A stretch of DNA of 54,936 nucleotides from Candidatus Micrarchaeia archaeon (GCA_049976305.1 JBMFIM010000004.1:1-54936), one strand, 5' to 3'; positions 15,872 to 53,419 are shown, numbered from the stretch's first letter. The notes: generated from the letters alone by a model not told the origin. Program-made: numbers and translations.

Positions 15872-16893
15872 TGTTCCTGCTTGATGCCTGCACTGGCGCT
15901 GCTGTTATGACGAATGGATGGTTTCTGGTAGCTACGGCTGGCGCACTTGCTGTAATGGCGGTGCTTGCGTTAATCTACGCTATCGCGCCTCTGGCAGGAC
16001 GAAATGAACTAAGGCCATGGGCTAGAATAAAAATATTTGATGTGCTTTTTTCTATTGTGCTTATCTTTATCTTCTTCTTTATTATAACAGAACTGAATTC
16101 CATAAACTATGTAAACCTGTTTGGCAGCTCACTTGTACCTACTGCCTGCATTAGTTCGCTAACCTCGGCTTCTACGTCTGGAACCCTGAGCTGCAGTCAT
16201 GTTTTGCCAGCAGTAGCAATGTGCGACCTGAACCAGTTCAACGGCTATGCCGGCAAGTTTAACATACTCGCATACCTAATCCAATTCTTCCTCTCAACCT
16301 CATCCGGATTAAATATAGAAGGGGATATAGGAAATTGGGGCGCATACAGTGCAAAGATATCAATAAACATATCTTCTTTCCAAAATTTCCTGTTTTTGAG
16401 CATTTTGTTCTGGTTTTACATCCTAAGCAGAGTATTGCTTCTTCTTTTGTCGGTATCTACGCTTTTGCTTAGCCTAACTTTGACAATAGGCCTCCTTGCA
16501 AGAATATTTCCAGTCACGCGCACATTTGGAGGGGCGATGATTGCGTTTGGTATGGGGATAGGAATCATACTCCCACTGATGGTTTCGCTGACCTATGGTT
16601 ACTTAGACATTGGGCTTCAAAATACATTTTCGAACATATCAACCCAGACTTTGATAAATACTATATATTCCTTCCTCCTTTACGCTTTAATTCCGATTGC
16701 TTCAACAATTGCTTTAACACAAGAAGCAATAAGCCTAATAATAAACTTAATAGTGTTTTCAGGGCTAGTTATTGTAGGTCTTGCATTCGTATCCATCTTT
16801 GACTTGGTGATAGTGGATGTATTCATTAGGGACTTTTCCCAAGCGGTTGGGGAGAGGCTTGACCTGCTAAGCATACTTATGAGCGTGGCGTAA
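15868..16893 (+). CDS. Multi-pass membrane protein, CedA/VirB6-like paralog 5
   Basis: IYAIAPLAG...KIFD motif; GLLARIFPVTRTFGGAMIAFGMGIGIILP; ATGA overlap. Confidence 0.7.
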   Translation: MMFLLDACTGAAVMTNGWFLVATAGALAVMAVLALIYAIAPLAGRNELRPWARIKIFDVLFSIVLIFIFFFIITELNSINYVNLFGSSLVPTACISSLTSASTSGTLSCSHVLPAVAMCDLNQFNGYAGKFNILAYLIQFFLSTSSGLNIEGDIGNWGAYSAKISINISSFQNFLFLSILFWFYILSRVLLLLLSVSTLLLSLTLTIGLLARIFPVTRTFGGAMIAFGMGIGIILPLMVSLTYGYLDIGLQNTFSNISTQTLINTIYSFLLYALIPIASTIALTQEAISLIINLIVFSGLVIVGLAFVSIFDLVIVDVFIRDFSQAVGERLDLLSILMSVA

Positions 16894-17946
16894 ATGAAAG
16901 CATTAACTATTGCTTTGTTTGTGCTTATTGGCTTGGTATTTGGGCAGGTTACTAGCTGCCCAGCTTCTGCGAGCGCATTGGCGCCATGGTACTGCAGCCA
17001 AATAAACCAAGCAGTGTATCAGACATGGGCTGAATGGGAGCCGATAGCAGTTGCAGCTGCACTTGTATCTTTCATGGTGGCAATGATAATATTTGTAATA
17101 GGTACAGCAGCCAACAATAACAGAATCAAAAGCTTTGGAATGGGCGAAATATACGAAGCCATAGCTACGATAATAATTGTTGCTGCATTTTCCTTCATAG
17201 CCGCTGAACTTTTTGGCGTTCTGCCATCGACAGTCGCTGGGCCGATAGACCCGTATAACGGAGCGCTTACCTACTTAGCGAAGAACATAAATGAGACAGC
17301 AACGCTTGTAAAGGCCCTTTTTGGCACATATGTGGTTGGAGCATACTATGCCAGCATATCCTTGGACTTTGCACTTGCCAGTGAATCTGTAACTATAGTG
17401 AAAAATGTTTATATGGTATATGCGGTTGCTATAAGCATATTCTTCCTGCTTCCAATAGATGCAATAATCAGTATAATTCTTGAAGGACTCCTGTTGCTGT
17501 ATGTAGAGTTTTACCTAGTGCTGTTTGCAATGTACGCCAGCATTCCTGTTTTCTTCATACCGGGCATAGTACTAAGGGCAATATTGCCTACAAGAAATGT
17601 GGGGGGAATGCTTATGGCGATGGGCATAAGCTTCTACCTGATAATGCCAACACTGTTTGCGGTTGCATATTACTTCACTACTAGCGGCGCCTTAGCGTCG
17701 CTCTACTCGCAGACACAAGCTATCGAAGCGAACAGCCAAGGCACAGGCGTTATAACCAATGCAATAAGCCCAACAAGCCCGCTTGTGCTAGACCTAAAGG
17801 GCATAGAGACAGGAATGGGTGCATATTGGATGGCTGTTCTTTTCTTCCCCTCACTTATTATTGCCATAACCTATGAAAGCACAATGATTATAGGCGAATT
17901 TATAGGCGGGTTCTCAAAGAAAAGTGGCCTATTGAGGGCTGTTTAG
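16894..17946 (+). CDS. Multi-pass membrane protein, CedA/VirB6-like paralog 6
   Basis: IFVIGTAANN...EIYE motif; GIVLRAILPTRNVGGMLMAMGISFYLIMP; TAA directly followed by ATG. Confidence 0.7.
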   Translation: MKALTIALFVLIGLVFGQVTSCPASASALAPWYCSQINQAVYQTWAEWEPIAVAAALVSFMVAMIIFVIGTAANNNRIKSFGMGEIYEAIATIIIVAAFSFIAAELFGVLPSTVAGPIDPYNGALTYLAKNINETATLVKALFGTYVVGAYYASISLDFALASESVTIVKNVYMVYAVAISIFFLLPIDAIISIILEGLLLLYVEFYLVLFAMYASIPVFFIPGIVLRAILPTRNVGGMLMAMGISFYLIMPTLFAVAYYFTTSGALASLYSQTQAIEANSQGTGVITNAISPTSPLVLDLKGIETGMGAYWMAVLFFPSLIIAITYESTMIIGEFIGGFSKKSGLLRAV

Positions 17947-18819
17947 ATGCAAGAGAGCGTATTGGCAAAGCTAGGCAAGAATAGCATCTCGGCTACTGAC
18001 ATTGCAAACCAGTTTTGGTGCGAAAAGCAGGTCGAGCTCAATTACCTATACGGAAAGAAGTATACAGAACAAATGCAAAAGGGCAAACAGCTGCATGAAG
18101 AGTTGAAGGCAGAGACATATATTCCTCTCAACATAGAACCGGTTACATATGCAGACCTGCTTTACAAGATAGGCTATGAAAATTACATGGCCCTAAAGGT
18201 TCTAGGCGAAAAGAAAGTTTGCAGGGAGCTTACCATATATGGCTCATTAGGGGGATTCAAAGTAGTCGGCCAAATAGACGAGCTGAGGCTTGACGAAAAC
18301 GGTGTTAGGATAATAGAGCTTAAGACCGTAGACTTTAGGCAGGGCTTTAGCACAAACCAGTCTAAGCTAAAGCCAAATATTGTTCAAGTCATGCTTTACA
18401 AGAAGCTACTTGACGATCTGAGGCTGAGAAGGTATACGCTCTACAATTTTTCAAAAGCTTACGGCTTGCAAACTAAAAAGCTCTCTGATTCGTTCTTAAG
18501 GGCTCTTCATGAACTTGGTATAAAGGAGGAGTATACAAACATAAGCGAGATATATAGGCTTATGTTCGACGAATTTTATGCCATGCCGAAGGTAAGCGAC
18601 AAACTTGAAATAAGATACGTTGACAGGCTTACGGGCAAGCAGATAAGCAACATTATAATAAATTATGATGAGGAAAGGATTAACAGAGATCTTTCTTTTG
18701 CTTTGAAGTACTGGCAGGGTGAAAGAGAAGCCATGCCGGTAAGCAAGGAGGAAAGATGGAAATGCAGACTTTGCAAGTTTTACGGAAAGGAATGCAAGGT
18801 TTGGTGGCCTCCAGGGTGA
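17947..18819 (+). CDS. Exonuclease V (Exo5/Dem1)-like, Cas4-like PD-(D/E)xK nuclease with an Fe-S staple
   Basis: ISATDIANQFWCEKQ, GKQLHEEL, GQIDEL...IIELKT, QVMLYK, C-terminal WKCRLCKFYGKEC (1+3 Cys). Confidence 0.82.
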   Translation: MQESVLAKLGKNSISATDIANQFWCEKQVELNYLYGKKYTEQMQKGKQLHEELKAETYIPLNIEPVTYADLLYKIGYENYMALKVLGEKKVCRELTIYGSLGGFKVVGQIDELRLDENGVRIIELKTVDFRQGFSTNQSKLKPNIVQVMLYKKLLDDLRLRRYTLYNFSKAYGLQTKKLSDSFLRALHELGIKEEYTNISEIYRLMFDEFYAMPKVSDKLEIRYVDRLTGKQISNIIINYDEERINRDLSFALKYWQGEREAMPVSKEERWKCRLCKFYGKECKVWWPPG

Positions 18820-18823
18820 GCAT

Positions 18824-21463
18824 ACGGAGCTGAGCAAAGAAAAGCTTAGGGAGGAATTTTGGAAGCAGCCTGAGAAATACTATAAAGTAAAGCTCTTTGA
18901 AGAGCTTGGCTTCGAGAGGAAAAAATGCGAGATATGCGGCAGATACTTCTGGACAGCAGACCCCAACAGGACCACTTGCGACGATTCCTCGCACACGCCA
19001 TATTCATTCTTCAAGGAAAAGCCTAAGCCAATAGGCTATGTCGAATTCTGGAAGATGTTCAGCAAGTTCTTCGAAGATAATAAGCATGCAATAATAGACA
19101 GATACCCGGTAGTTAGCAGATGGAGGCAAGATCTATATTTCACCATTGCCGGCATACAAGACTTCCAAAGGATAGAAAACGGTGTTATGAGCTTCGAATA
19201 TCCTGCAAACCCTCTCCTTGTTCCCCAGATGTGCATGAGGTTCAACGATGTGGAGAATGTAGGAGTTACAGGCAGGCACTTCACCGCTTTCATGATGGCA
19301 AACCAGACATCTTTCAACTGGCCCGAAGAAGGATATTGGAAAGACGAAACTATAAGGCTCAACTTTGAATTTCTTAACAAGGTTTTGGGCATAAGGAAAG
19401 AGGATATTATTTACCACGAAGACGTATGGGCCATGCCAGACTTTTCAGAGTTCGGCCCCAGCCTAGAAACGTTCTCCAAAGGCCTAGAGATTGTAAACAG
19501 CGTATTTACAGAGTTTGGCTTGATAAACAACGAGATAAAAGAGCTCAAAGGCAAGGTTGTCGATGCTGGCTGGGGATTTGAAAGGGCCTTGTGGTTTTAT
19601 TCGGGATTTGATAATGCTTACGAGGCGGCGTTTGGTAGCATTATAAGAAAGATAGAGGAGGAAAGCGGGATAAGCATAGATACAAATCTTTATAGGAAGT
19701 TTGCTGCTTATTCTGGCTCCCTCGACTTCGAAGAAAAAGGAAGATCCAGTCTCGAGAAAGTGCTAAAAGAGCTTGGCATAAATTGGGAAGAATATGAAAA
19801 CCAAATAAGAGTTGCACAAGCTATATACGCGACTGTAGACCATGCAAGGACCTTGCTTTTTGCGATAACCGATGGAGCACTGCCCTCAAACATAGGTGGC
19901 GGATACAATTTAAGAGTAATTCTGAGACGCGCCTTCGACTTTATTGAAGGCTATGGAATAAAACCTTCGCTTACCGAAATAGCTGAGCTCATAGCACAAG
20001 ACCTCAAGGGCCTTTATCCTGAACTGCTTGGTAGCATAGACACCTTTGACAAGGTAATAGGCATAGAAAGGGAAAGGTACCGCAAGAGCGTAGAAAATGC
20101 AAGGCATATTGCAGAGGTCACAATTGCAAAGGGCAATGTAAACGCTCAAACGCTCAAGACGCTCTATGAAAGCTACGGCATAACGCCGGAATTGCTGCAC
20201 AAAATCGCAAAGGAAAAGAAGATTGAGCTGCACATTGAGGAAAATGCTTACAAGCAGCTTCTAACAGGCGACATGGTAAGAAAGGAAAAAGAGAAGGAAT
20301 TGCCTTTCAGCGTAGAAGGCTTGCAGCCCACAAAGCCTCTTTACTATTCTTTCACTACAAAGGCCAAGGCAAAGGTAGTTCTCACACATGATAAGTTTGT
20401 AGTCCTTGATCAAACGCCGTTCTACCCTGAAGGCGGCGGACAAGAACCTGACTTGGGTACAATAAACGGAGTAAAAGTAGAGGATGTGCAGAAAGTGAGC
20501 GGGGTAATAATTCACAAGCTTGAAAATAACCCATTCAAAGTGGGTGATGAAGTATATGCTGAAGTAGATGAAAGAAGAAGAAACAGGCTAATTGCCCACC
20601 ACACAGCCACGCACCTGATAAGCGCTGCTGCAAGAAAGCTTCTTGGCAATCATGCATGGCAAGAAGGCGCTAAAAAAGGGCCTGAAAAGGCGCATATAGA
20701 CATAGCACACTATGAAAAACTCAGCGAAGAACAGCTTCTGGCAATAGAGAACCAGGTAAACGAATGGCTCATGCATGGCATAAAGGTCAACGCCCAAGAA
20801 ATGGACAGAAAAGAGGCCGAGGGCAAGTATGGCTTCGGCATATACCAAGGCCACGGCGTGCCTGCAAAGACACTAAGAATCGTTACGATAACTGATCTTA
20901 ACAACAACCTAATAGACGCTGAAGCATGCGGGGGGCTCCACGCAGTAGGCAGAGAGTATTTGCTGCTAATGGTCAAAATAATAGGAAGCGAAAGAATCCA
21001 TGACGGCGTAGACAGAATAGAATTTGTAGCGGGAGAGGCTGCTTTGAAGTATTTGCAGAGGGAGCATGCGATAATTGAAAAGCTGGCTACGCAGCTGAAC
21101 GTAGAGCCGGAGAAAATAGAGGAAAGGCTTAAAGCATATTCTGAGTCTGCAGAAAAAAAGAGCAAGGAGCTTGAAAAGGGCTACGATGCTCTTGCAGAAT
21201 CTCTAGCCAAAGCCTATGAAGGGAAAGAAGAGATAGAGCTCGTGATAGACCTCCCAGGCAATATGCTCGCGAAGATAGGGGACAAAATTGCGAAGGCCAA
21301 CAAGAAAGGAATAGTAGTAATAAGAAACAAGGCTGGAGACCTTATTTGCATAGCTGGCGAGCAGTCAGGCAAAAGCGCAATAGATTATGTGAAGCAGAAA
21401 TTCAAGCAGTTCAAAGGAGGGGGAAGTGTGAAATTTGCCAGCGGAAGAGTTGAAAAAGTATAG
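18824..21463 (+). CDS. alaS: Alanine--tRNA ligase (archaeal type); N-terminus extends upstream of the ORF-track ATG to a probable ACG start
   Basis: In-frame ELSKEKLREEF...LFEELGFERKKCEICGRYFWT upstream of 19055; RYPVVSRWRQDLYFTIAGIQDFQ, DHARTL, HHTATHL and EACGGLH editing motifs. Confidence 0.96.
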   Translation, partial: TELSKEKLREEFWKQPEKYYKVKLFEELGFERKKCEICGRYFWTADPNRTTCDDSSHTPYSFFKEKPKPIGYVEFWKMFSKFFEDNKHAIIDRYPVVSRWRQDLYFTIAGIQDFQRIENGVMSFEYPANPLLVPQMCMRFNDVENVGVTGRHFTAFMMANQTSFNWPEEGYWKDETIRLNFEFLNKVLGIRKEDIIYHEDVWAMPDFSEFGPSLETFSKGLEIVNSVFTEFGLINNEIKELKGKVVDAGWGFERALWFYSGFDNAYEAAFGSIIRKIEEESGISIDTNLYRKFAAYSGSLDFEEKGRSSLEKVLKELGINWEEYENQIRVAQAIYATVDHARTLLFAITDGALPSNIGGGYNLRVILRRAFDFIEGYGIKPSLTEIAELIAQDLKGLYPELLGSIDTFDKVIGIERERYRKSVENARHIAEVTIAKGNVNAQTLKTLYESYGITPELLHKIAKEKKIELHIEENAYKQLLTGDMVRKEKEKELPFSVEGLQPTKPLYYSFTTKAKAKVVLTHDKFVVLDQTPFYPEGGGQEPDLGTINGVKVEDVQKVSGVIIHKLENNPFKVGDEVYAEVDERRRNRLIAHHTATHLISAAARKLLGNHAWQEGAKKGPEKAHIDIAHYEKLSEEQLLAIENQVNEWLMHGIKVNAQEMDRKEAEGKYGFGIYQGHGVPAKTLRIVTITDLNNNLIDAEACGGLHAVGREYLLLMVKIIGSERIHDGVDRIEFVAGEAALKYLQREHAIIEKLATQLNVEPEKIEERLKAYSESAEKKSKELEKGYDALAESLAKAYEGKEEIELVIDLPGNMLAKIGDKIAKANKKGIVVIRNKAGDLICIAGEQSGKSAIDYVKQKFKQFKGGGSVKFASGRVEKV

Positions 21464-21476
21464 GCAAGCAGGCGAA

Positions 21477-21977
21477 ATGATGAATTTGGTATATGCAGCG
21501 TTTGTTTACCCTATTCTATACATACTTCCTGCATACGTGGCAAATGGCGCACCTGTAATATTTGGCGGAGGAAAGCCATTAGATATGGGAAAAAAGTTCA
21601 GAGGTAAAAGGATATTTGGCGACCACAAGACAGTAAGAGGGCTTGTTGCAGGCTTAGTGAGCGGCATAGCAATAGGCAGCATTGAATCCCTTTTCATTCC
21701 ATACATGCTCCTAGTCGGTGTGCTTCTCAGCATCGGAGCCCATGCTGGCGATCTGCTTGGAAGCTTCGTTAAGAGGCAAGTAGGCATAAAAGAAGGCGGC
21801 AGATTGCCGGTGCTCGACCAATACTTGTTTTTTGTTTTCGCAATTTTGTTTGCTTGGCCACTAGGTCATCTTCCAAGTGGGTGGGGAATCCTGTTCCTCG
21901 TAGTCCTTACTGGCCTGCTTCACATCTCTACAAATTTCGGCGCATACAAGCTGAGGCTGAAAAAGGTTCCTTGGTAG
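21477..21977 (+). CDS. carS: CDP-archaeol synthase (DUF46)
   Basis: PAYVANGAPVIFGGGKPLD, IFGDHKTVRG, GDLLGSFVKRQ, PVLDQ, LKKVPW. Confidence 0.93.
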   Translation: MMNLVYAAFVYPILYILPAYVANGAPVIFGGGKPLDMGKKFRGKRIFGDHKTVRGLVAGLVSGIAIGSIESLFIPYMLLVGVLLSIGAHAGDLLGSFVKRQVGIKEGGRLPVLDQYLFFVFAILFAWPLGHLPSGWGILFLVVLTGLLHISTNFGAYKLRLKKVPW

Positions 21978-24284
21978 TTAGACAATAAGCTGGTCCAGTG
22001 TTTCAAGGCTTATCAGCTTGACGTAGCTGTAGTCTATGGCAAGCTTTAGCACGCTAGCGGACTTGGTATACGAAAGGTAAAGCTTCTTTGTAAACTCCCT
22101 CTTTATGTCCTCGTTAAGGAACACTATGAAAGTAGGAAGCCTGCTGCTTACTGAGAACTTGCGCATGCCACTTTGGCTCGAGTATATAATTACAGCCGCC
22201 TGCCTGCTGCTCTTTGTTATCAACATGTCAGCTATCGGTTCGGTATTCAGGTCAGTGAACAGCATTGCGTGCGACACGCAATAGTCTCTGAGCTGCCTGA
22301 AAATTACAAGGTATTCAGCGTCGTGCTTTGAAGCGTCAATCCAAGAAGTAAGCAAGTAATATCCGTTCGCTTCAGTAACCAATCCTTGCTTTATCAATTG
22401 CTGAAGAAGGTTTTGGGCATTTTGTGTAGTTATTGAGATGGGTGCATTTCCTATGCGAATGTAATTGCTTATCCCATTTTTGAACTCGTCAAGGGTTATT
22501 GGCATAAAGGACCAGTGGTAGTAGTAGTTTAGCTTTTCAAAAACAGAAACTAGGTCCTGTGGCGTGGTCTTAGCAACCTCCTTCTTCTCTGGCAGAAAAG
22601 TAGGCACATCTATATAGTACTCATCCCTGTTAGGCGGTTTAAGCACAAGATTAAGGAGCAGTATAGCGAGCAGCACGATTCCCAGTTCAATGTAAAATGC
22701 AGGTATGTGCATTATCTCTTTCGAGTATGTGACAGAATAGGTAAGAGTCGTTCCAAATATGCCAAGCTTAAAAGTCTGCTTGCCGTAGCTTACTAGGGTA
22801 CCTTTTGGCAAAGAATAAAGCAGCTTGCCTCCTTGTATGCTCACATTTTCAGCATAGGCGCCATCTAAAGAGAGTATGCCAGAAGCAGTAACCGGGTAGG
22901 TGCCTGAGTAAACGTTAAATACGAAAGTCCCGTTCTTGAAATTCAAAGACACGGGCGTAAGCACAAGTTGCGGGATTTTGAAAACAGCTATAGAGTAGTT
23001 TTCATCAAACTGGTTTCTAAGCAGGGCAACATATGTGCCGCTAGGAAGCGTGAAGATGTGCCTGAGCTCAAACGCTACTGTTCCGGAAAAAGAATGAAAC
23101 ATAGGGATTGATTCTACATAGCTAAGGTTTTGATTCAAAAGGTCTATATGGAGCTGCACTGGTGTTGGCGAGGTGACATTTACAAATATAGTAGTGTTTG
23201 CCGCGTCGTAAACAACGCTTGGCAGGCTAAACTTTGCTATGCCGGAGTAGTTCGCTTTGAAGACTGCTATTTTTGTAAGGTAAGATGTGGAGTTGCTTAT
23301 GGTGAGCCTTGCAATGTTTGTAGAGCTGTTTGCCTCGTTGCTATCACCGAAAGGTATGCTTGTTTGGTTTGTAAAAATGCCAAGCTTTCCTGTCGCGTTT
23401 GTTACATTTTCCTCAACATATGCCAGCTTAGGTATCCAGAAAGCGGCGTTTATGGAGTAAGCAAGAGCATGGGCGAAAGAAGTCAGATTGGACCAGGCAA
23501 AAGTGGGATAGTTCGAGAAAGCTATGAAGGTGCCGTTGCCTGCTTTTGTGTATGCTATGTCATTCCAAAGGCTGCCGTGGCTAAGTGCGAAAGTGGGCTT
23601 ACTAAACAATGATGAATTTGGCTTAGACATGTTCGAAGGAAGGGGAAAGGAAGTTATGTTATAGCTTGCGAGCTGGGAAAGCATGCTTGGCGGCGTTATG
23701 TAGATTATGCCACCGCTACTAACCGACTTGTTAAATGCTTGGCCTATGTATATTATAGTGTCGCCCTTGTTTAAAAGCTCAAATATTCCTGATGAGTTTT
23801 GCAAAAGCGGCAAAGGCATAAGGCCTGATGGTACTATCACGATTGAACCTGGCTCGATAGCTGACAGGTTTTGCAATGAAACATAATTGAAGCTGCTTCT
23901 GTTGAGTATGAGACCTAGGTTTGAAAGGTAGCTTTCCAAAGCAGAAACAAGATCCTGCTCATTAAACGTGTTGATCGAGTACTGAGTTACGTTTAGAATG
24001 TAAATCGGCCTTATAGGATTTGAAGAATAAGAAGCTATGGAAAGCAGTGCGGAAGAAAAGTTGTAGGCAGAATACGAGAGCAACGTATAAAGGGCCAACC
24101 TGCTTGCATTGTTGTAAGATGCAAAAAACGCTTTATTTACATACAAACTAGAGGAAAGAGGGCCTATGTGACTTACTGAAATATGGGCAAGGCCTGAATA
24201 AGCCATGCTTCTTACTTCCAAAACAAGAGCTAAAAGAATCACTAGCAGGATAACGGCAATTACTACAAATTTCAGGCCTTTCGT
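21978..24284 (-). CDS. Large secreted/membrane-anchored protein with a cytoplasmic C-terminal domain; probable ACG start
   Basis: (M)KGLKFVVIAVILLVILLALV signal/anchor, many N-x-S/T sites, second TM ELGIVLLAILLLNLVL, charged C-terminal domain. Confidence 0.75.
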   Translation of the reverse strand, partial: TKGLKFVVIAVILLVILLALVLEVRSMAYSGLAHISVSHIGPLSSSLYVNKAFFASYNNASRLALYTLLSYSAYNFSSALLSIASYSSNPIRPIYILNVTQYSINTFNEQDLVSALESYLSNLGLILNRSSFNYVSLQNLSAIEPGSIVIVPSGLMPLPLLQNSSGIFELLNKGDTIIYIGQAFNKSVSSGGIIYITPPSMLSQLASYNITSFPLPSNMSKPNSSLFSKPTFALSHGSLWNDIAYTKAGNGTFIAFSNYPTFAWSNLTSFAHALAYSINAAFWIPKLAYVEENVTNATGKLGIFTNQTSIPFGDSNEANSSTNIARLTISNSTSYLTKIAVFKANYSGIAKFSLPSVVYDAANTTIFVNVTSPTPVQLHIDLLNQNLSYVESIPMFHSFSGTVAFELRHIFTLPSGTYVALLRNQFDENYSIAVFKIPQLVLTPVSLNFKNGTFVFNVYSGTYPVTASGILSLDGAYAENVSIQGGKLLYSLPKGTLVSYGKQTFKLGIFGTTLTYSVTYSKEIMHIPAFYIELGIVLLAILLLNLVLKPPNRDEYYIDVPTFLPEKKEVAKTTPQDLVSVFEKLNYYYHWSFMPITLDEFKNGISNYIRIGNAPISITTQNAQNLLQQLIKQGLVTEANGYYLLTSWIDASKHDAEYLVIFRQLRDYCVSHAMLFTDLNTEPIADMLITKSSRQAAVIIYSSQSGMRKFSVSSRLPTFIVFLNEDIKREFTKKLYLSYTKSASVLKLAIDYSYVKLISLETLDQLIV

Positions 24285-24332
24285 TTAATCAACCTTTGCC
24301 AAGTTCAATGCAAGCATGCATGATCTCGCTCT

Positions 24333-24488
24333 CTATTGCTGGCTTGACTGCTGGTTTTTGCTTATCAGCTTGTCTATAAGCTTGGAGAAGGCGATTGAGA
24401 GCTTGTTTTCTTGCTGGCCTATCTTTTTGACTATCTTGTAGACCTTTATGTAGCGGTACTTTTTGTTTATTGAGACTATGTATTTCAT
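24333..24488 (-). CDS. Small basic hypothetical protein (MKYIVSINKKYRYIKVYKIVKK...)
   Basis: ATG 2 nt after the upstream gene's stop codon; 51 aa; fills the gap in a minus-strand operon. Confidence 0.4.
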   Translation of the reverse strand: MKYIVSINKKYRYIKVYKIVKKIGQQENKLSIAFSKLIDKLISKNQQSSQQ

Positions 24489-24490
24489 AG

Positions 24491-25243
24491 CTATCCCTTA
24501 AGCTCGAGGTAACCAAGGCCAACCATCTTGTCAAGTATTTGCTCCACTCTAGGCTCAGGGACCTTATAAGTCTTTGCAAACTCCTCTATGTCTATTGTAC
24601 TGTCATGCACCTCGAGCCAGTCCTCTATCATCGCCATCAGGGCCTCATCAGAGTAGGTCTGCAAGGCCTTAAGCTGCTCCTGGAGCTTTTTGTTTTCCTC
24701 GCTCAGTTGCGAAGCTTGAAGGGTTAGGTTTCTGTTGGCATTGCTAAGCTCGGTTGCAAGCTTCCTAAGCTCTGAGAACTCTGCAAGCAAAGAGTCGTAT
24801 TTGTTGAAAAGCGTGCTATAATTATCATTAAGCCCGCTGAGCAGGTCCGAGATTACCGAATCTATGTATTGGAAGAACTTCTGCGTGTTGATTTTGAAAT
24901 CGTCATCGATCATTGCCAAAATGCCGGACAGGTTTTTCAGCACAGTTGCCCTTCTCATCCTGTCGCTCGTATTAGGCACTATTGAATAGGTAAGCCCAAT
25001 CTCGTTGCTCCTCAGCTTCACGATGTAAAAAAGGAAAGGCTCCTTGCGCACATTCCTGCTTTCTACGTGAACTATATCAAGCTCGTCCTGAGCCTGAGTA
25101 AAGGTATAAAATGGTACTTGCGAAAGTTTTCCTTTTATTGCTTCAAAACTGCTGGTAAGGCTGCCTGGAAACTGTATCTCTTCTATCTTTGGCTCTATCA
25201 ATTCCTCTTCTGCCACCTTCGCACCTTTAAATGTATCGCTCAT
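24491..25243 (-). CDS. Hypothetical protein with coiled coil and C-terminal winged helix
   Basis: Heptads at LLAEFSELRKL...LQEQLKAL; IDIEEFAKTYKVPEPRVEQILDKMVGLGYL. Confidence 0.75.
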   Translation of the reverse strand: MSDTFKGAKVAEEELIEPKIEEIQFPGSLTSSFEAIKGKLSQVPFYTFTQAQDELDIVHVESRNVRKEPFLFYIVKLRSNEIGLTYSIVPNTSDRMRRATVLKNLSGILAMIDDDFKINTQKFFQYIDSVISDLLSGLNDNYSTLFNKYDSLLAEFSELRKLATELSNANRNLTLQASQLSEENKKLQEQLKALQTYSDEALMAMIEDWLEVHDSTIDIEEFAKTYKVPEPRVEQILDKMVGLGYLELKG

Positions 25244-25320: not shown

Positions 25321-26322
25321 ATGCAGAAAAAGCAAGCTAAGCCGGCGCGACCAAGGATCGTCTCCCCCGTAAGGTTTTACACATTCGTAGCAATAGTAGT
25401 GATAATAGTCGCTATTGTCGTAGCCATTGTTCTGCAAAAAAGCTCAGTAATCAGCATTACAAACCCGATTCTGCTGACACTGCATAAAAACCAGACCTTG
25501 CTCTTGAGGCTACAAAACACAACAGATGCTATATACTTGGCAAACTCCAATACAACAGGTGCCTTGATTTACTTTGGGCCGATGCCATTTGGACTGGCTA
25601 ATTTCGGAGAGCTACGGCTAGGCGAAAATGCATCGGTAAATCTAAGCTCTTCATTTGGCAGTGTTGCAGACTTAAACATAAAATTGGTGGCAAGCAATGC
25701 AACATCTGCCAAGCTGTATTTCACACCTATAGCTGCTTACCTCGGCATTAAGCCAGCAAAAATTGCCATGCTTGGCCCTACTCCAATACAGATCGAGCAA
25801 GGCCTCAAATTGATAGTAACAACTTCTTCGACCACCACCTCCACTACCACCTCAACAATAAACTATACTTCGCAGCTCCTAAACAATGCAATCAACTATG
25901 CCAACACGAAAACAAGCGTAGGCCAACTTTTACTGGCATATAAGCAGCTCTATATCAAGGACAAGGTATGCAATGCGACAGTTTATAACGAGACATTTTA
26001 TCACTATTACAACAAAATGCCTTCTGGCCCCCAGAGTTTTGCCAACATGACTAAGATAGTGCCTATCAGCATAAACGAAACGGCTTCCCAACTCTATGGC
26101 AATTTGGTATATGTCAACTTCACACCTGTTCTGCGCAATGGTACAATGCATACTCCAATGTTCTCAATGCTTCTAAACCTCACTCCAAACGCACAAGCGC
26201 CAATCATAGAGACAAGATTTGAAGGCATTCTATTCGGAGACAATTATACTATATTGAATGCCACGTACCAGTTCCAGAGCAGGATAACGAACTATTGCGG
26301 GGCGTATATAGAACCTCCTTGA
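25321..26322 (+). CDS. Membrane-anchored surface glycoprotein with Ser/Thr linker
   Basis: Basic N-terminus plus TM, TTSSTTTSTTTST linker, many N-x-S/T sequons, paired Cys. Confidence 0.75.
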   Translation: MQKKQAKPARPRIVSPVRFYTFVAIVVIIVAIVVAIVLQKSSVISITNPILLTLHKNQTLLLRLQNTTDAIYLANSNTTGALIYFGPMPFGLANFGELRLGENASVNLSSSFGSVADLNIKLVASNATSAKLYFTPIAAYLGIKPAKIAMLGPTPIQIEQGLKLIVTTSSTTTSTTTSTINYTSQLLNNAINYANTKTSVGQLLLAYKQLYIKDKVCNATVYNETFYHYYNKMPSGPQSFANMTKIVPISINETASQLYGNLVYVNFTPVLRNGTMHTPMFSMLLNLTPNAQAPIIETRFEGILFGDNYTILNATYQFQSRITNYCGAYIEPP

Positions 26323-26375
26323 ACAAGACAGGCTTAAGTAATATTAATGTTTTATTGTAAACATAAGGCAGGTAC

Positions 26376-27209
26376 ATGCTGAGTGGCAAAAACCTTTTCA
26401 TAGCAATTATTTTCGTGGCGATTTTGCTAGTACTTGTTCTTTATCTTGTGCCGCTACCTTGGCCTGCAAGGGCCATTTTAGCAATAATTATACTGGGCAT
26501 AGATCTCGTTGGATTCGCTACAAAATATTATGACTATTTCCTGATTCCGTTGTTGCAGATGAAAAACAGAACAGTAGTGCTGAGCGAAGAGCCCGCGTTC
26601 AGAATAGCCCCGGATGACAACACTATTCTCAAAAACGTCCCGGGAGGCGTTTATGCAAGCGCCTTTATAAACATACCAATCTACAAATCGGCAACTGAGA
26701 TGGACGATGGGATGAGGCTAGATATAGCTACTACCTTTTCAAAAATACTTTCGCTCAGCAAGGAACCTATGAAATTCTCCACGATACTTTATGTTGTGAA
26801 CAAGGATGAGTATATACAAGAAATAAGAAACAAGCTTGATGAAGCAGAAGCAAAGTATGCGCAGTTGAATGCTCAATCGGCTCCTGGTGTTGCAAATCCG
26901 GAATTGGAAAGGGCAAAGGGCGAAGCGACAATGTGGAGAAACTTGTTTGACAACATAAGCAGGGTAAAATCAAGCGCTCTAGCTAACATAATTATGGTAA
27001 CGGCTTTTGGCGGGAATGAGGAAGAAGCAATAGCAATAGCTTCGCAGAAGGCTGAGGAAATTGCGGCAGGGGTAAGCGCGCTCCTCGGAGTAAATGCCTA
27101 TATTATGTCCTCTAAGGAATTCCTTAAATTTATAGAACCGGAGGAGCTCATGCCCATAGGAACCATAAGCGAGGAACTTAAGGAGAAAATCGCAAGCGTA
27201 GGGGTATGA
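26376..27209 (+). CDS. Two-TM membrane protein with coiled coil; possible VirB3/VirB4-N-terminal-like subunit
   Basis: Two N-terminal TMs, soluble alpha/beta domain with central coiled coil; paralogous layout to the next gene. Confidence 0.65.
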   Translation: MLSGKNLFIAIIFVAILLVLVLYLVPLPWPARAILAIIILGIDLVGFATKYYDYFLIPLLQMKNRTVVLSEEPAFRIAPDDNTILKNVPGGVYASAFINIPIYKSATEMDDGMRLDIATTFSKILSLSKEPMKFSTILYVVNKDEYIQEIRNKLDEAEAKYAQLNAQSAPGVANPELERAKGEATMWRNLFDNISRVKSSALANIIMVTAFGGNEEEAIAIASQKAEEIAAGVSALLGVNAYIMSSKEFLKFIEPEELMPIGTISEELKEKIASVGV

Positions 27210-27210
27210 C

Positions 27211-28035
27211 ATGGACGCAAATACACTCACTTACATAGCAACGAGCTCAATAGTTGCACTGCTCGTAGGTTTTGGAGCTGGGCTTTACGGTCCGGCTGCG
27301 ATATTCATAGTCATATTGAGCATACTCGCCATTCTTCTAGTATTCATAATTAACTATGCAGACTTCCTGCTCTTTCCGCTTTTCACCCACATACTCCGAA
27401 TAAAAATAATACCTACCAAAGACTATTACATACCTCCTACCAATGATTGCGTCATAAAGTATGTCAATGGACTTTATTATGCTGTGGGCTACCTAACAGC
27501 CAACATCTACAACTATGTCTTCAACATAGAAAAGATTGAAGAAGGCATGGAGGAAGCATTGGCTGAAGCCCCAAACACATGGGAAAGGATAGTCCAAAAC
27601 ATAAAATTCCCGTTCAAATACAACTTTATAACCTATGCTGAGGATATTCAGAAATACAGAGACGAGCTTGAGGCTAAAAGAGGCATGCTTGAATTCCAGC
27701 TTTCGAAAGAAATGGAGTCGCAAAACCCAAGCCAGCTGACAATAGAAGACCTGCAAAGAAGGATAAACATAATACAGGCTAGAATAGACAGGCTTTCATC
27801 CGGCGAGAGACCCATAAACGCGGTAATGTATATAGAAACAGAAGCAGTGGGAGTAAGCGAAAAAGACGCTAGAGACCAGCTTACTTCACAGCTTGACCAC
27901 CTTACCACACTCTTTGGCGGCTTTGACGTAAGCATAACAAGGATTGTTGGCAGAGAACTCTATCTTTTATTCAAGTATGGCTACTTCCTGCCTGATATAA
28001 TGACCCTCAACCAGGTATTCAGCATACAGAAGTAG
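27211..28035 (+). CDS. Two-TM membrane protein with coiled coil; paralog of the previous gene
   Basis: YADFLLFPL vs YDYFLIPL; YAVGYLTANIY vs YASAFINIPIY; PFKYN vs PMKFS; AVGVSEKDA vs AFGGNEEEA. Confidence 0.65.
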   Translation: MDANTLTYIATSSIVALLVGFGAGLYGPAAIFIVILSILAILLVFIINYADFLLFPLFTHILRIKIIPTKDYYIPPTNDCVIKYVNGLYYAVGYLTANIYNYVFNIEKIEEGMEEALAEAPNTWERIVQNIKFPFKYNFITYAEDIQKYRDELEAKRGMLEFQLSKEMESQNPSQLTIEDLQRRINIIQARIDRLSSGERPINAVMYIETEAVGVSEKDARDQLTSQLDHLTTLFGGFDVSITRIVGRELYLLFKYGYFLPDIMTLNQVFSIQK

Positions 28036-28065
28036 GCATAAATAATTTATGAGAGATGTTTAACT

Positions 28066-29571
28066 ATGAGCCTTGTGCGCATTCAGAACGTAATGAGCAA
28101 CGAATTAGGAAAGAGGGCTACGATAACAAGGCCTCCGGAACCGCCACATGATTATCTCCTCAATGATCCTGCAAACTCGATCTTCGTTGGAATAACAAAG
28201 ATGTTTGAAGTACCTTTCACTTGGACTTTCGCGACACTTACAAACCCTCATATAGCGGTAGTTGGAATAACCGGAGCTGGCAAAAGCTTCTTTGTTAAGA
28301 CTTTTCTTACGAGGGCAAGCTTCGTTTGGAATACTAACGCGATAATAATAGACTGGGCTGGAGAATACAAGGCTTGGGTTAAGCAAAGTGGTGGCACGAT
28401 AGTGGCGCTTGGCAAAGGAGACTACCTCAACATAATGGACCTTTCAGGCATGAAGCCGCTAGACAGGACCAAGCAGATAATGACCTCTTTTGAAATACTT
28501 ACAGACATAGGCCTATACCCTGAGCAGAAGAGGCTTACAGAAGAGGCAATAGAGCAGGCTTATGTAAATTTTGGCTTCAACCTTGCAGAGACGCCGCCGC
28601 CTGAGAAAGAGGCTCCTACGCTGAAAGATGTCATAGCGCTTCTAGAGGAAAAGTTGCAAGAAGGAACCTATGAGTACCCTGCAGAGCTTGAAAACGCAGT
28701 ATACAGGCTTAGGCAGTTTTCAAGAGAAGGCGAGGATTACTTTGCAAGAAAAAGCACAATAGACCTTGGCAAGCTTGCAAGTTCAGGTCTAGTAGATATA
28801 GACCTTTCAGGCCTGCCAGATGAGAGGTTTAGAGCCCTTGCCGCACTCTTCATGCTTCAAACCTTGAAGGAAAAGATGAGGATGGAAGGTTGGTCTGCAA
28901 GCAAAGGTCTGAAGGCTTTTGTTGTGCTTGATGAGGCTTGGAAGGTTGCAAGCGACGACAGGAGTGATGCAATTACAATAGTGAGGGAAGGCAGAAAATA
29001 CCAGTTCGGTCTTATCGTTGCTTCGCAAAATCCTACAGACATAAACGAGGCCATATTCTCCAATGTAGGCACTACAGTAGTGCTTAGAATAAAGTTTGAA
29101 AGATTCCTTGACTATCTTCAGGGCTCTCTTAACTTCTCAGACTTCCTGCGCAGGGAGATAAGCAAGTTCGGAGTAGGCCAGGCAGCAATAGACATGTCTT
29201 TCCAGACAAACATAGAATTCCCAGGCACGTTCCTTATAGAAAGGGTAATTGGAGAGATACCGCTGGATGTCTATACCATCAATGTTTCTGAAGTGCTAAG
29301 CCAAAGTGAGCTAAACGATGAAAACGTGCAGAAGGAATATTTCCTTGAGAAGATAGACCTTAATGCGAAGCTCATAGAAAACAATGTACCCTCAGAAACC
29401 ATAAACGATATTTTCAAGGAACTTGATACTAGAGGAAGGCTTATAGACATAAGGGCCCTTGTCCAGATCATGCTTAGCAGGCAGGTAAGCAAAGAATCTA
29501 TTGTAAACTTTATGAGGGCATTGGGCATAACCGACACAGTAATAACAAGGGCATTCTTGTACGTGACATAA
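28066..29571 (+). CDS. VirB4/HerA-like (DUF87, CedB-like) P-loop ATPase
   Basis: NPHIAVVGITGAGKS Walker A, IIIDWAGEY, VVLDEAW Walker B, REGRKYQFGLIVASQ. Confidence 0.9.
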   Translation: MSLVRIQNVMSNELGKRATITRPPEPPHDYLLNDPANSIFVGITKMFEVPFTWTFATLTNPHIAVVGITGAGKSFFVKTFLTRASFVWNTNAIIIDWAGEYKAWVKQSGGTIVALGKGDYLNIMDLSGMKPLDRTKQIMTSFEILTDIGLYPEQKRLTEEAIEQAYVNFGFNLAETPPPEKEAPTLKDVIALLEEKLQEGTYEYPAELENAVYRLRQFSREGEDYFARKSTIDLGKLASSGLVDIDLSGLPDERFRALAALFMLQTLKEKMRMEGWSASKGLKAFVVLDEAWKVASDDRSDAITIVREGRKYQFGLIVASQNPTDINEAIFSNVGTTVVLRIKFERFLDYLQGSLNFSDFLRREISKFGVGQAAIDMSFQTNIEFPGTFLIERVIGEIPLDVYTINVSEVLSQSELNDENVQKEYFLEKIDLNAKLIENNVPSETINDIFKELDTRGRLIDIRALVQIMLSRQVSKESIVNFMRALGITDTVITRAFLYVT

Positions 29572-29572
29572 T

Positions 29573-29869
29573 ATGGGAGTAACCTACACTATTTCAAGGC
29601 AGCGCCTCCAGCGCATGCTTACCCTTCTAGGCGTTAGCGAAAAATCTATCCAAGAATTGATTAACGAGCTGAACAAGGAGCACAGGCACATCAATGTTGT
29701 TTCGCTTGCAGGGCTCCTTGAAAAAATAGGCTTAAAGGAGACTCAGACGGCAAACGTCTTGAGGAGAATAGGCATAGACGATGTGACAATTACAAGCATA
29801 ATGAATGCGCTAGACGAAGAAAAAATAAAGAGAGCATACGGCAGGTTGGTGGAGCTTGAGTTGGGTTAA
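29573..29869 (+). CDS. Small helical protein resembling the C-terminal domain of the upstream ATPase
   Basis: INVVSLAGLLEKIGLKETQTANVLRRIGIDDVTIT vs IDIRALVQIMLSRQVSKESIVNFMRALGITDTVIT. Confidence 0.7.
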   Translation: MGVTYTISRQRLQRMLTLLGVSEKSIQELINELNKEHRHINVVSLAGLLEKIGLKETQTANVLRRIGIDDVTITSIMNALDEEKIKRAYGRLVELELG

Positions 29870-29870
29870 C

Positions 29871-30257
29871 ATGAGAAATCAACCAAAAAGCGTTTGCATA
29901 ATCTGCGGGCAGGAAAAGCCAGGAATAGAGGTAAAAGAAGACAACGTGATAAGGGCAATAAGATGGTTCAAGAGAAACGTGACAAAGAACGAGCAGGGCA
30001 ACAAGCTTGTTGTATGCAAAGACTGCTATGTGAAATACAGCGCGCTAAGGTCAAAATACGAAAGCAGGCAGAAGCTTTACATTGCGCTTGGCATACTTTT
30101 TGTCATATTCTCAACTATAGTCTCGACAAACAAGCTAGTAGGGTTGGGCATAGGGATTTTCATATTTTTGCTTCTTTACCTGATATCCTTCCTTAGTTAC
30201 ATTCCTGCTTTGAACTTGCCTAAAACTTCGGAGGCAAAACCTAAAAAGGAAAAGTAA
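29871..30257 (+). CDS. Zn-finger membrane protein
   Basis: CIIC...CKDC followed by two TM helices. Confidence 0.72.
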   Translation: MRNQPKSVCIICGQEKPGIEVKEDNVIRAIRWFKRNVTKNEQGNKLVVCKDCYVKYSALRSKYESRQKLYIALGILFVIFSTIVSTNKLVGLGIGIFIFLLLYLISFLSYIPALNLPKTSEAKPKKEK

Positions 30258-30302: not shown

Positions 30303-31523
30303 GTGAAAAGCCTCGAAGAGGTGGAGTCAGATATAATCTCGCTTATAAATGATAAGCAGGAAATGGCGTATGCTGAAATAAAGAAATACGCAGAAACCTA
30401 TGGCATAGAAGATGGGCTTCTGGAGAGAAGCCTAAAAGAGCTCGAAAAAGCGAACGCTATAGCATCTAGAAACAGCGGCGGCGTACTGACATACTACATG
30501 CTCCAAGAGGAGCAACCAATCAAAAGGGTTTTCATAGTTGAAGACGACAGGAACATAAACAAGCTGATGGCCCTTTCCATAGGCAAGGAATTTGAGATTA
30601 CTCAGATATATGACGGAAAGGAGGCGATGGAAAGGATAAAGTATGAGAAGCCAGACCTTGTGATACTCGACCTGATGCTTCCGGGCATGGATGGCTTAGA
30701 GATTTGCCAGAGGATAAAGTCGGATGAGAGCTTGAAGGATACTGTAGTGATAATAGTAAGCGCGATGGACGCAACCTCCAATAGGTTCAAGGGCATAAAG
30801 TATGGAGCGGACTACTACATAAAAAAGCCTTTTGACCCTGCTGAGCTCAGAAGCCTAGTTACAATATTCCTAAAAAAGAAAGGCAGGCGATTCGACCCAC
30901 TAATAGACCTGCCCAACGAGGAAAGGATAACAAACGCTGTGGAGAACGCAATGAAGCAAGGCTCTTTGCAATCGACAATAGGCACTCTCAAGGTAGAAGG
31001 CCTTGCTGAATTTGCAAATGCGTTTGGCACAGAAGCGGGAATGACAATATTAAGGCTTGTTTCGCAGCTTCTTCAAGACAAGGTAAAGGAAATAGGCAAT
31101 GTGTTTGTGGGCTTTCTCAACAGCAGTGATTTTGTAATAGCAGGCGATGAGGCAGGCGTTAGAAAGCTTGTTGAAGGGATAAAGGCTGAATTCTCTGCAG
31201 TGCTGCCTTTCGTATACCAAAGCGAAGGCTACAAGCCTATAGAGCTAGGTGTCGAAAACGCGTACAGCAGCCCTGTTCCTTCGCTTTCGCTATCGTTTAC
31301 CGCAATAGGCAAGCAGGAAATAGCTGAAAGAAGGGCAGAGGTGCTCAAGAACAAGCCTGTAGACAGCATAGGCGCCTATACCTACGAGGAGCTTAGGCAC
31401 ATTCTAGGGAGTGAGGACATAGACGTTACGATAACTAGGGATCCTTCAGGCGTTAAGCTCTCTGTAAGCAAAAGAAACTCTAAGGAGAAGCCTGAAAAGG
31501 ACAAAGACCTCAAAGCAATATAG
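30303..31523 (+). CDS. Response regulator: N-terminal wHTH-like domain, REC domain and degenerate GGDEF-like domain
   Basis: IVEDD, ILDLMLPGMDG, IVSA, GADYYIKKPF; RFDPLIDLPN...FVGFLNSSDFVI. Confidence 0.85.
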   Translation: MKSLEEVESDIISLINDKQEMAYAEIKKYAETYGIEDGLLERSLKELEKANAIASRNSGGVLTYYMLQEEQPIKRVFIVEDDRNINKLMALSIGKEFEITQIYDGKEAMERIKYEKPDLVILDLMLPGMDGLEICQRIKSDESLKDTVVIIVSAMDATSNRFKGIKYGADYYIKKPFDPAELRSLVTIFLKKKGRRFDPLIDLPNEERITNAVENAMKQGSLQSTIGTLKVEGLAEFANAFGTEAGMTILRLVSQLLQDKVKEIGNVFVGFLNSSDFVIAGDEAGVRKLVEGIKAEFSAVLPFVYQSEGYKPIELGVENAYSSPVPSLSLSFTAIGKQEIAERRAEVLKNKPVDSIGAYTYEELRHILGSEDIDVTITRDPSGVKLSVSKRNSKEKPEKDKDLKAI

Positions 31524-46888: not shown

Positions 46889-47311
46889 ATGCAGCAAACG
46901 CTGAAGGATCATGTTATAGTGTGCGGCTACGGCCTTGTAGGCGAGAAGGTTGTTGAACTTTTGCAGCAGTACAAAATCCCTTATGTTGTGGTAGAGATAG
47001 ACAAAGCAAAGGCAGACGTGCTCAAGGAGAAGGGCATACCCGTAGTATGCGGCGACGCCACGTCATCAAAGGTATTGAAAGAGGCAGGCATAGAAAAGGC
47101 GAAGGCCATAGCAATAGCAACCGATGACGATGCAAAGAACTTCTTTACCGTAATAACTGCGAAAAGCCTTAACAGCAAAATAATAATTGCAACAAGGGCC
47201 AACAGCGAGCTCATAGTCAACAAGCTCAAAGAAGCCGGTGCAAACTTTATAGCTACGCCCAACAAGTCTGCTAGCGAAGAGCTTTTTAGGGAGCTCACAA
47301 GGGGCGTTTGA
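46889..47311 (+). CDS. Stand-alone TrkA-N/RCK domain protein
   Basis: HVIVCGYGLVG, GDAT..VLKEAGIEKA, DDAKN, ATRA, AGAN. Confidence 0.9.
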   Translation: MQQTLKDHVIVCGYGLVGEKVVELLQQYKIPYVVVEIDKAKADVLKEKGIPVVCGDATSSKVLKEAGIEKAKAIAIATDDDAKNFFTVITAKSLNSKIIIATRANSELIVNKLKEAGANFIATPNKSASEELFRELTRGV

Positions 47312-48800: not shown

Positions 48801-48889
48801 AACCCTATTCATAGTTTGAATTTCCTTGATGAATTTGCCATATAGCGTTGCCCGAAAGCATAATAAACTTTATAATACCTATTACAACC

Positions 48890-53415: not shown

Positions 53416-53419
53416 TAGA

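Follow-up and report, generated by a model that had tools for sequence, protein, structure and literature searches.

Two archaeal DNA import systems, Ced in Sulfolobales and Ted in Thermoproteales, are described as domesticated derivatives of type IV secretion systems (T4SSs); they contain a VirB4-like protein (CedB/TedB), a VirB6-like protein (CedA/TedA) and a VirB2-like pilin (CedA1/TedC) (PMC9905601). Patescibacteria are reported to retain a relaxase-less chromosomal T4SS that is essential for epibiotic growth and lies near the replication origin, among replication genes (PMC12102498), and a 2026 preprint ties the uptake of host RNA by a Patescibacteria epibiont to possible T4SS pili (10.64898/2026.06.21.733656). 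These systems are the closest analogies to the one considered here, encoded in an operon at positions 25321-30257 of a 54 936-nt stretch of DNA (below, the window) from a Candidatus Micrarchaeia archaeon (GCA_049976305.1, JBMFIM010000004.1:1-54936), a member of Micrarchaeota (DPANN) with a genome of 723 kb that is 93.7% complete. We consider it probable that this operon encodes the motor half of a 13-gene machine, chromosomal and phylum-wide in Micrarchaeota, that is related to T4SSs and Ced, has a split VirB4-type motor and transfers macromolecules at host contact.

By ORF calling on the window we found six plus strand open reading frames (ORFs), A to F, packed at near-zero spacing. Both B (B_277; 26376-27209, 277 aa) and C (C_274; 27211-28035, 274 aa), whose start codon lies 2 nt past the B stop, begin with two hydrophobic segments followed by a predicted cytoplasmic domain resembling the VirB4 N-terminal domain; for C this assignment comes from a structure model compared with TrwK, for B from its paralogy to C and from a match to a family of fused proteins described below. 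The paralogy of B and C is evident from BLASTP (31% identity over 160 aa, E 5e-10) as well as from profile-profile comparison (probability 98.3%, E 1.3e-14, 230 columns). D (28066-29571, 501 aa) has a P-loop ATPase core of VirB4/CedB type (residues ~40-385) and a C-terminal helical domain (~422-501); its motifs include Walker A GITGAGKS (67-74), Walker B VVLDEAW (286-292) and VREGRKYQFGLIVASQNP (306-323), with the REGRKYQFGLIVASQNP block. The all-helical protein E (E_98; 29573-29869, 98 aa) is, by profile comparison, a free-standing copy of the ~80 C-terminal residues of D: alignment of the two families by hhalign had a probability of 98.6% (E 5.4e-16; E 2-98 on D 422-501) and hmmsearch confirmed the kinship, while BLASTP alone was non-significant (E 0.24), so that profiles were needed to reveal the relationship.

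The operon ends with F (F_133; 29856-30257, 133 aa), in which an N-terminal Zn-ribbon, CxxC...CxxC with four Cys, is followed by transmembrane (TM) segments. F overlaps E by 14 nt and its listed start is TTG; the real start may be an internal ATG (residue 6), because orthologues start a few residues ahead of the first CxxC. At the other end A (A_333; 25321-26322, 333 aa) carries a single TM segment at its N-terminus, a Thr-rich linker and 16 N-X-S/T sequons, features that suggest a surface glycoprotein. All elements of the co-directional run named in the preliminary description, the two 2-TM paralogues, the ATPase with intact motifs, the helical protein and the Zn-finger protein, were thus found again. 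Synteny was assessed by tblastn of 21 window proteins against 16 loci, each up to 18 kb, from related genomes. D, E and F were adjacent in all 16 loci and B-C stood directly 5′ of D in 14 of them; given this conserved adjacency, the six-gene run is not a chance arrangement. A homologue of A was seen in just one locus (L039, same genus), and A is genus-specific and probably not a core part of the cluster.

The fold of C points to VirB4. We modelled C with AlphaFold2 from a 134-sequence alignment (mean predicted local distance difference test score, pLDDT, 83.4); in the resulting model a long helical hairpin at the N-terminus leads into an alpha/beta domain that itself contains a helical hairpin. 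In a Foldseek search the ranks 1-11 were all TrwK, the VirB4 of plasmid R388 (prob 0.95-1.0). An independent search of 48 161 chains put TrwK (7o42_A) at rank 1 as the sole entry with Z >= 8 (Z 9.3, rmsd 3.4 Å, 166 residues); the rows ranked next were coiled-coil matches of ~55 residues. Upon re-examination of five TrwK entries we observed Z-scores of 11.7 (8rtd_g, 3.1 Å, 155 residues), 9.3, 9.3, 8.9 and 8.5, with model residues ~69-274 aligned to TrwK ~220-385 in all five. Of the N-terminal domain of TrwK the match covers only the second half; this is the part of VirB4 just ahead of the ATPase, since D aligns to the NCBIfam VirB4 family model from position 423. The ATPase match of D itself starts about residue 45, and no VirB4 N-terminal domain is present on the D polypeptide. 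The VirB4 N-terminal-domain fold sits instead on the separate chains B and C. Against PDB sequences the profiles of B and C had best E-values of 0.71 and 0.028, to unrelated proteins, and there was no match to either protein in Pfam or NCBIfam. In one relative (G221) a 790-aa open frame at the C gene could have been read as a C-D fusion; we rejected it, C (266 aa) and D (512 aa) being separate ORFs.

Proteins in which both halves are joined do exist. A family of 690-913 aa carries two TM helices and a B/C-like domain in its first ~270 residues, and the stretch from residue ~280 to ~640 is 30-33% identical to D (E-values around 1e-42 to 1e-46 in a representative search). The N-terminal part aligned collinearly with the profiles of B (95.1%, E 3e-8) and C (81.8%, E 1e-5), a relationship that plain hmmsearch and BLASTP detected too. 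The same fused proteins cover the CedB model of NCBIfam over practically its whole length (positions 13-587 of 590; E 6e-41, 141 bits against a cut-off of 700), and true CedB ORFs likewise start with hydrophobic segments. B and C would thus provide in trans the VirB4 N-terminal part, as the preliminary description had proposed, and the fold match of C to TrwK speaks for the same arrangement.

Fused proteins were found at full length in three loci of named metagenome-assembled genomes (MAGs) of Thaumarchaeota/Thermoproteota, one of them beside a tyrosine integrase. Two Thaumarchaeota MAGs (L045:8243-14090 and L047:8927-15171) have fused proteins of 2TM, N-terminal domain, ATPase and winged helix-turn-helix/nuclease-like composition, each within a small island in which a polytopic protein of 290-300 aa is encoded upstream of the fused gene; the L045 island contains a tyrosine integrase, and the L047 island a Zn-ribbon+TM2 protein. 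In one relative, P0239, a Zn-ribbon is fused behind the ATPase, an architecture reminiscent of F.

The affiliation of the ATPase was examined in a tree of 77 cores (385 columns, LG+G4; support given as ultrafast bootstrap/Shimodaira-Hasegawa-like approximate likelihood-ratio test). Labels were checked by NCBIfam for a sample of rows; TraC, represented by two sequences, was above its cut-off and CD1110 VirB4 was verified. Repair HerA, CedD, proteins resembling antiphage HerA and an ATPase of the same genome encoded on contig C24 formed one clade (99/91), and D fell outside it. D grouped with its distant relatives and a shorter paralogue family in a clade of 35 rows (99/94), the fused family formed a clade of its own (98/90), TraC joined CD1110 VirB4 (96/92), and these three groups came together at 87/93. 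On the question whether the ATPase belongs with VirB4, CedB or HerA, raised in the preliminary description, the tree favours a place apart from HerA. Among the candidate VirB4 rows we rejected four Firmicutes proteins of 538-638 aa (L052, L055, L057 and L064), which had been picked up via the shared KEGRKYG motif and which matched antiphage HerA models best (E 2e-32 to 5e-40, below cut-off), as well as a Lactococcus plasmid protein (L095) that was CedD/HerA-like by NCBIfam.

The operon is one piece of a larger cluster, itself conserved, that comprises 13 genes in the ancestral order M369-M391-M576-M377-M341-M350-B-C-D-E-F-g250-g754. We observed g250 and g754 after F, in the same direction, in 15 of the 16 loci (g250 identity 39-71%), and M350 directly 5′ of B in 12. 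The whole collinear cluster, with five or six M genes, was present in L025, L027-L029, L031-L035 and L038, and also in two loci from another family of the class (L103 and L104; D identity ~58%), where five M genes were visible in one and six in the other. In the genus of the window the cluster is broken: genes for Exo5, alanyl-tRNA synthetase and a CDP-archaeol-synthase-like protein (CarS; together 17947-21977) lie between the M array and the remainder, and g250-g754 are inverted (21978-25243). A sister species (L039) has the same pieces in a different rearrangement.

The penultimate ancestral gene, g250 (24491-25243, minus strand), encodes a cytoplasmic coiled-coil protein with a C-terminal winged-helix-like domain; its Pfam match to HTH_Cmi2_C was just short of the threshold (E 4e-5, 24.3 bits, cut-off 27) and was accompanied by matches to coiled-coil families. 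No paper tying Cmi2 to archaea was found in our literature search. The last gene, g754 (21978-24242, minus strand), encodes a single-pass membrane protein with a sequon-rich ectodomain of 515 residues (24 N-X-S/T sequons), a TM segment at 516-534 and a cytoplasmic tail of ~220 aa. It had no match in Pfam or NCBIfam, and in a feature search of the ESM Atlas the tail reached best scores of 0.83 or lower. Sequon counts assign an extracellular location to A and the ectodomain of g754, and an intracellular one to B, C, D and E.

The six M proteins are encoded on the plus strand upstream of the operon: M369 (10733-11842), M391 (11842-13017), M576 (13011-14741), M377 (14738-15871), M341 (15868-16893) and M350 (16894-17946). 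By profile comparison they constitute a single family of polytopic membrane paralogues, with hhalign probabilities of 99% between the M350, M341 and M377 families and hidden Markov model (HMM) matches to all six. They share signal-peptide-like N-termini and a motif around R-x-x-P-x-T-R-x-x-G-G. M369, with several TM segments and syntenic in relatives, matched the HMMs of the family alignments A5, A6 and A7 (E 1e-5 to 3e-14); M391 matched that of A6 (E 1.1e-6) and has orthologues at the same place in 9 of the 16 loci; M576, which has an inserted Cys-rich extracytoplasmic region (10 Cys) and the motif RALSYTRRLGG, matched all three (E 5e-12 to 1e-8). M377 (alignment A7) and M341 (alignment A6) aligned to the M350 family at 99.1% (E 5e-19) and 99.0% (E 1e-17). 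No M protein had a Pfam or NCBIfam match, and for M350, the best conserved, Pfam gave none in 13 of 13 orthologues.

M350 is a possible channel subunit of VirB6/CedA type. Its AlphaFold2 model (pLDDT 83.9, predicted template modelling score, pTM, 0.77) consists of very long helices packed side by side in a bundle, and TrwI/VirB6 was the sole natural membrane protein matching it over nearly the whole length (best Z 9.3, rmsd 5.8 Å, 231 of 268 residues; others Z 8.3-8.5; overall range 5.8-7.1 Å and 231-243 residues). The ESM Atlas feature search led to a cluster from the same phylum (score 0.89), with Pfam CedA1 in 23% of its members, which we treat as a lead only. A weak similarity at motif level to polytopic neighbours of CedB-like and fused ATPases points in this direction too. 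The VirB6/CedA-like character of the M proteins is only suggestive.

The cluster is chromosomal and vertically inherited. An orthologue of D was present in all 41 close relatives (63-99% identity), with 63-83% identity over three families of the order, and in 261 of 301 sampled genomes of the phylum (E <= 1e-40, 55-99% identity); identity drops with taxonomic distance, from 99-63% within the order to 55-61% in the class. The C family was likewise found in 261 of the 301 genomes, and the patterns of D and C agree family by family apart from f1 and f3. Both share the same gaps: f10 (0/7), f11 (2/15), f15 (0/5) and seven families of one or two genomes (f17, f18, f20, f22, f26, f29 and f31). Some genomes, e.g. 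G192 and G206, gave two split matches to D. Inteins with a LAGLIDADG homing endonuclease interrupt two distant D orthologues, in P0123 after Walker A GSGKS and in P0122 at Walker B (..LF | C..).

A Pfam scan of 48 window ORFs returned no relaxase, VirD4-type coupling protein, NurA, Mre11, Rad50 or integrase, and PF02534 and PF03432 had no match in the whole 93.7%-complete genome, while control genomes responded. The G+C content of the cluster (0.42-0.44) is unremarkable against 0.42-0.50 across the window. Since relaxase, coupling protein and integrase were missing from these scans, inheritance was vertical and conservation in a 0.7-Mb genome was unusually strong, the cluster is not a conjugative element. 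The preliminary description had likewise noted that the vicinity holds no mobility or repair genes and had taken the motor to be chromosomal and to work with a membrane protein array; our data agree on the missing genes and the chromosomal setting, and the M array abuts B-C-D in most relatives, with the cluster extending across the phylum.

Taken together, these results suggest how the machine may work. It would share its origin with the archaeal Ced/Ted systems and with the core that T4SS and conjugation machinery has in the inner membrane. D would supply the hexamer-forming P-loop domain, and B and C, anchored by their two-helix hairpins, would supply the VirB4 N-terminal domain in trans and probably tether D to the membrane. 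The six M proteins probably form a membrane channel or platform in a VirB6/CedA-like role, and E, F, g250 and g754 may be accessory, substrate-handling or surface parts. Most likely such a machine moves a macromolecule across the symbiont membrane at host contact; by analogy with Ced the cargo could be nucleic acid and the direction inward, which we regard as possible rather than probable. More specifically, and tentatively, the cluster may encode a T4SS-derived conduit, on which Micrarchaeota would depend, for nucleic acids or other macromolecules from Thermoplasmatales hosts, with a split motor (B, C, D and E), a six-subunit VirB6/CedA-like channel and a surface glycoprotein: a DPANN counterpart of the Patescibacteria T4SS and a heteromeric elaboration of Ced/Ted.

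Like Ced and Ted, the Micrarchaeota cluster is archaeal, chromosomal, relaxase-less and T4SS-derived, and it has in common with Ced a VirB4-type ATPase, here probably membrane-anchored, with a module of two TM segments and an N-terminal domain, polytopic membrane partners, and a bridging fused family that aligns with CedB over its full length. Unlike in Ced, the ATPase is spread over three or four genes (B, C, D, plus E as an extra copy of the D tail), six paralogous polytopic proteins stand in place of one CedA, F, g250 and g754 are extra conserved partners, and the system is spread phylum-wide among DPANN archaea that depend on hosts, with no known UV or DNA-damage context. The resemblance to the inner-membrane complex of the R388 T4SS (TrwK/VirB4, TrwM/VirB3, TrwI/VirB6; PDB 7o41, 7o42, 7o43, 8rtb, 8rtd) lies in the superposition of the soluble domain of C on TrwK; the gene order, a polytopic protein, a small membrane protein and then the ATPase, recalls that of the monoderm VirB6-like, PrgI/VirB3 and VirB4 genes on pAPRE01. 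In contrast to R388, the VirB4 N- and C-terminal domains are on separate polypeptides with the N-terminal part duplicated, and no VirB2, B5, B8, B9, B10, B11 or D4 was recognised in the cluster.

The T4SS of Patescibacteria (Candidate Phyla Radiation) is, as reported, also VirB4-centred, relaxase-less and retained in most of a phylum whose cells are ultrasmall and depend on hosts. It differs in being bacterial and of MPF-FATA (mating-pair formation) type, with an unsplit VirB4 and, as reported, no VirB3-VirB4 fusions found (PMC12102498); the Micrarchaeota components, in turn, escape standard VirB profiles. In the window an Orc1/Cdc6 gene (39393-40619, minus strand) lies about 10 kb from the operon, so that a replication origin may be close to it, a setting like that reported for the Patescibacteria T4SS among replication genes. 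With HerA-NurA and antiphage HerA systems D shares the ATPase superfamily, its best Pfam match being DUF87/HerA central (3e-18), ahead of AAA_10 (1e-12) and TraG P-loop (3e-8); unlike in these systems, no nurA, mre11 or rad50 was seen near D in the window scan, D is without the barrel region that HerA has at its N-terminus (HerA models align with D from model position ~130 onwards), and the HerA-side ATPase of the genome is the separate one on contig C24. VirB4/TraG-like domains have been described in giant 'SPEARE' surface proteins of nanohaloarchaea, with proposed roles in effector secretion or host exchange (PMC10266531). By that description the likeness is a DPANN lineage with a VirB4-like ATPase tied to large surface proteins; the SPEARE ATPase is fused to a giant Ig-repeat protein, whereas D is a separate 501-aa protein in a 13-gene cluster.

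Several observations weigh against a split VirB4-type motor with a VirB6-like channel. The Foldseek E-values of the TrwK matches to C (0.018-0.092) miss the 0.001 bar. When B and C were compared directly with seven true CedB proteins (above cut-off), the profiles gave E-values of 3e-3 and 1e-3 and probabilities of 11% and 22%, although the weak alignment lands in the expected N-terminal region; because the direct comparison is weak, the link of B and C to CedB rests on the fused intermediates. D is below all NCBIfam cut-offs (TIGR00929 VirB4 33.8/643, CD1110 69.3/325, TraC 51.4/567, CedB 58.2/700 and CedD 68.1/600 bits) and scores comparably on HerA models (51.0/800 and 48.3/970 bits), so profile scores alone cannot classify it. 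In the tree TraC and CD1110 sit on long branches, and their joining was marked as one that branch length may have caused; CedB with CedB-like proteins (100/99) was placed without resolution (92/58) and not next to D. The short paralogue from contig C6, described below, had been omitted from this tree (aligned core of 209 aa, under the 220-aa limit). In two of the 16 relatives C lies far from D (137 kb in G022 and 24 kb in G039), in addition to the break in the genus of the window. For the M proteins, the Z-scores of M350 to VirB6 are within noise for helical proteins (IncA reached Z 13.4 over half of the model), hhalign of the M family with a CD1112 VirB6-like protein gave E 0.77, and that with CedA-like polytopic neighbours of CedB-like and fused ATPases was weak (E 6e-3 and 2.5e-3). 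Finally, no VirB2/CedA1-type pilin was recognised, none of the 14 cluster proteins being of that size or type and no search having been aimed at small pilin ORFs; this is a further difference from Ced.

The main rival explanation, which we find quite unlikely, is that the cluster encodes a membrane-anchored HerA/FtsK-like housekeeping pump acting on the cell's own chromosome in segregation or septum clearance, the VirB4 likeness reflecting shared ancestry within the FtsK-HerA superfamily. That the cluster is nearly universal and very highly conserved in reduced genomes would suit such a pump, as would the inteins in the P-loop motifs of D orthologues (inteins favour essential information-processing proteins), the Orc1/Cdc6 gene within ~10 kb, the weak coiled-coil matches of g250 to proteins such as ZapB and MreC, and the label 'cell division protein', an automatic name, carried in one source by the C homologue P0323. 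A universal role in division is nevertheless at odds with the families from which both D and C are missing (f10, f15 and nearly all of f11), and a segregation pump would not be expected to have six polytopic paralogues, nor a surface glycoprotein of 754 aa or a membrane protein with a Zn-ribbon; moreover, the VirB4 N-terminal fold of C and the CedB-like fused relatives favour the secretion/import branch, and D is outside the HerA clade.

Unlikely, too, is a machine for protein export or surface assembly that secretes or inserts g754 or A, or builds a conjugative-type pilus or attachment structure, and moves no nucleic acid. This reading draws on the constant position of g754 at the end of the cluster, the signal-peptide-like starts of the M proteins, the Atlas lead from M350 to a CedA1-bearing cluster and the effector secretion proposed for the nanohaloarchaeal VirB4-like domains (PMC10266531). 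It is opposed by the pilin result given above, with its limit, by a separate type IV pilus locus in the genome (50119-54436), and by E, the C-terminal helical domain of D and the winged-helix-like parts of g250, which may rather be modules that bind nucleic acids or partners. That the cluster is a decayed integrated conjugative or viral element present by chance is very improbable. VirB4-type ATPases are typical of mobile elements (PMC12102498) and one of the three MAG loci with the closest fused relatives has a tyrosine integrase; the occurrence in 261 of 301 genomes, the vertical pattern that identity follows, the conserved gene order, the unremarkable G+C content and the negative scans for mobility genes speak against it, and on distribution and gene content we rejected the mobile-element reading.

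A machine transferring macromolecules at host contact would bear on how DPANN archaea draw building blocks such as nucleotides and lipids from their hosts, a question for which the cluster offers a concrete candidate. VirB4/VirB6-type machines move DNA and proteins between cells, and to our knowledge no dedicated transfer machine has been established for Micrarchaeota; the cluster is a good candidate for the movement of large molecules between symbiont and host. We found no published description of such a cluster in the full-text literature, with subscription journals and supplementary tables outside the search, and a paper on the cultivated Ca. Micrarchaeum harzensis mentions neither HerA, VirB, secretion nor pili. 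Within the literature covered, the cluster is a variant of VirB4/Ced-type machinery not previously described for Micrarchaeota. It also amounts to a natural dissection of VirB4, with the N-terminal domain on two membrane-anchored chains, the ATPase on a third and the duplicated C-terminal helical module on a fourth, and could be useful for understanding how the VirB4 N- and C-terminal domains cooperate. Along with Ced/Ted and the Patescibacteria systems it strengthens the case for repeated domestication of conjugation-type machines to chromosomal functions. One source names a C homologue from the cultivated Candidatus Mancarchaeum acidiphilum, and the machine should therefore be accessible to localisation and pull-down experiments in existing co-cultures.

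A second, minimal module was found in the same genome, outside the window, on contig C6 (5730-8252; loci L002 and L003). Its three genes follow the same order: the first encodes a polytopic M-like protein of 325 aa (E 3.7e-16), the second a B/C-like protein of 178 aa (E 2.8e-9) that matches the soluble-domain part of the C profile only, and the third a D-like ATPase of just 342 aa (E 5.6e-51) without the D insert at ~103-238; modules of this type were also present in relatives. Near it are two ORFs with archaeal type IV pilin-like N-termini (C6:3202-3705 and C6:14290-15273).

Directly 3′ of F in the window is a plus strand gene (30303-31523) for a protein with an N-terminal extension, a response-regulator receiver domain (Pfam, 9e-27) and a weak resemblance to GGDEF in its C-terminal region (E 0.022); it is no part of the cluster in relatives, in which g250 comes after F. 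The separate pilus locus on the plus strand (50119-54436) is of type IV pilus/archaellum-like composition, with a T2SSE-family ATPase (7e-35), two T2SSF/PilC-like membrane proteins and two unannotated ORFs (48848-50110 and 51633-52364). Three consecutive plus strand genes at 46889-48800 each encode a TrkA_N (NAD-binding) domain.

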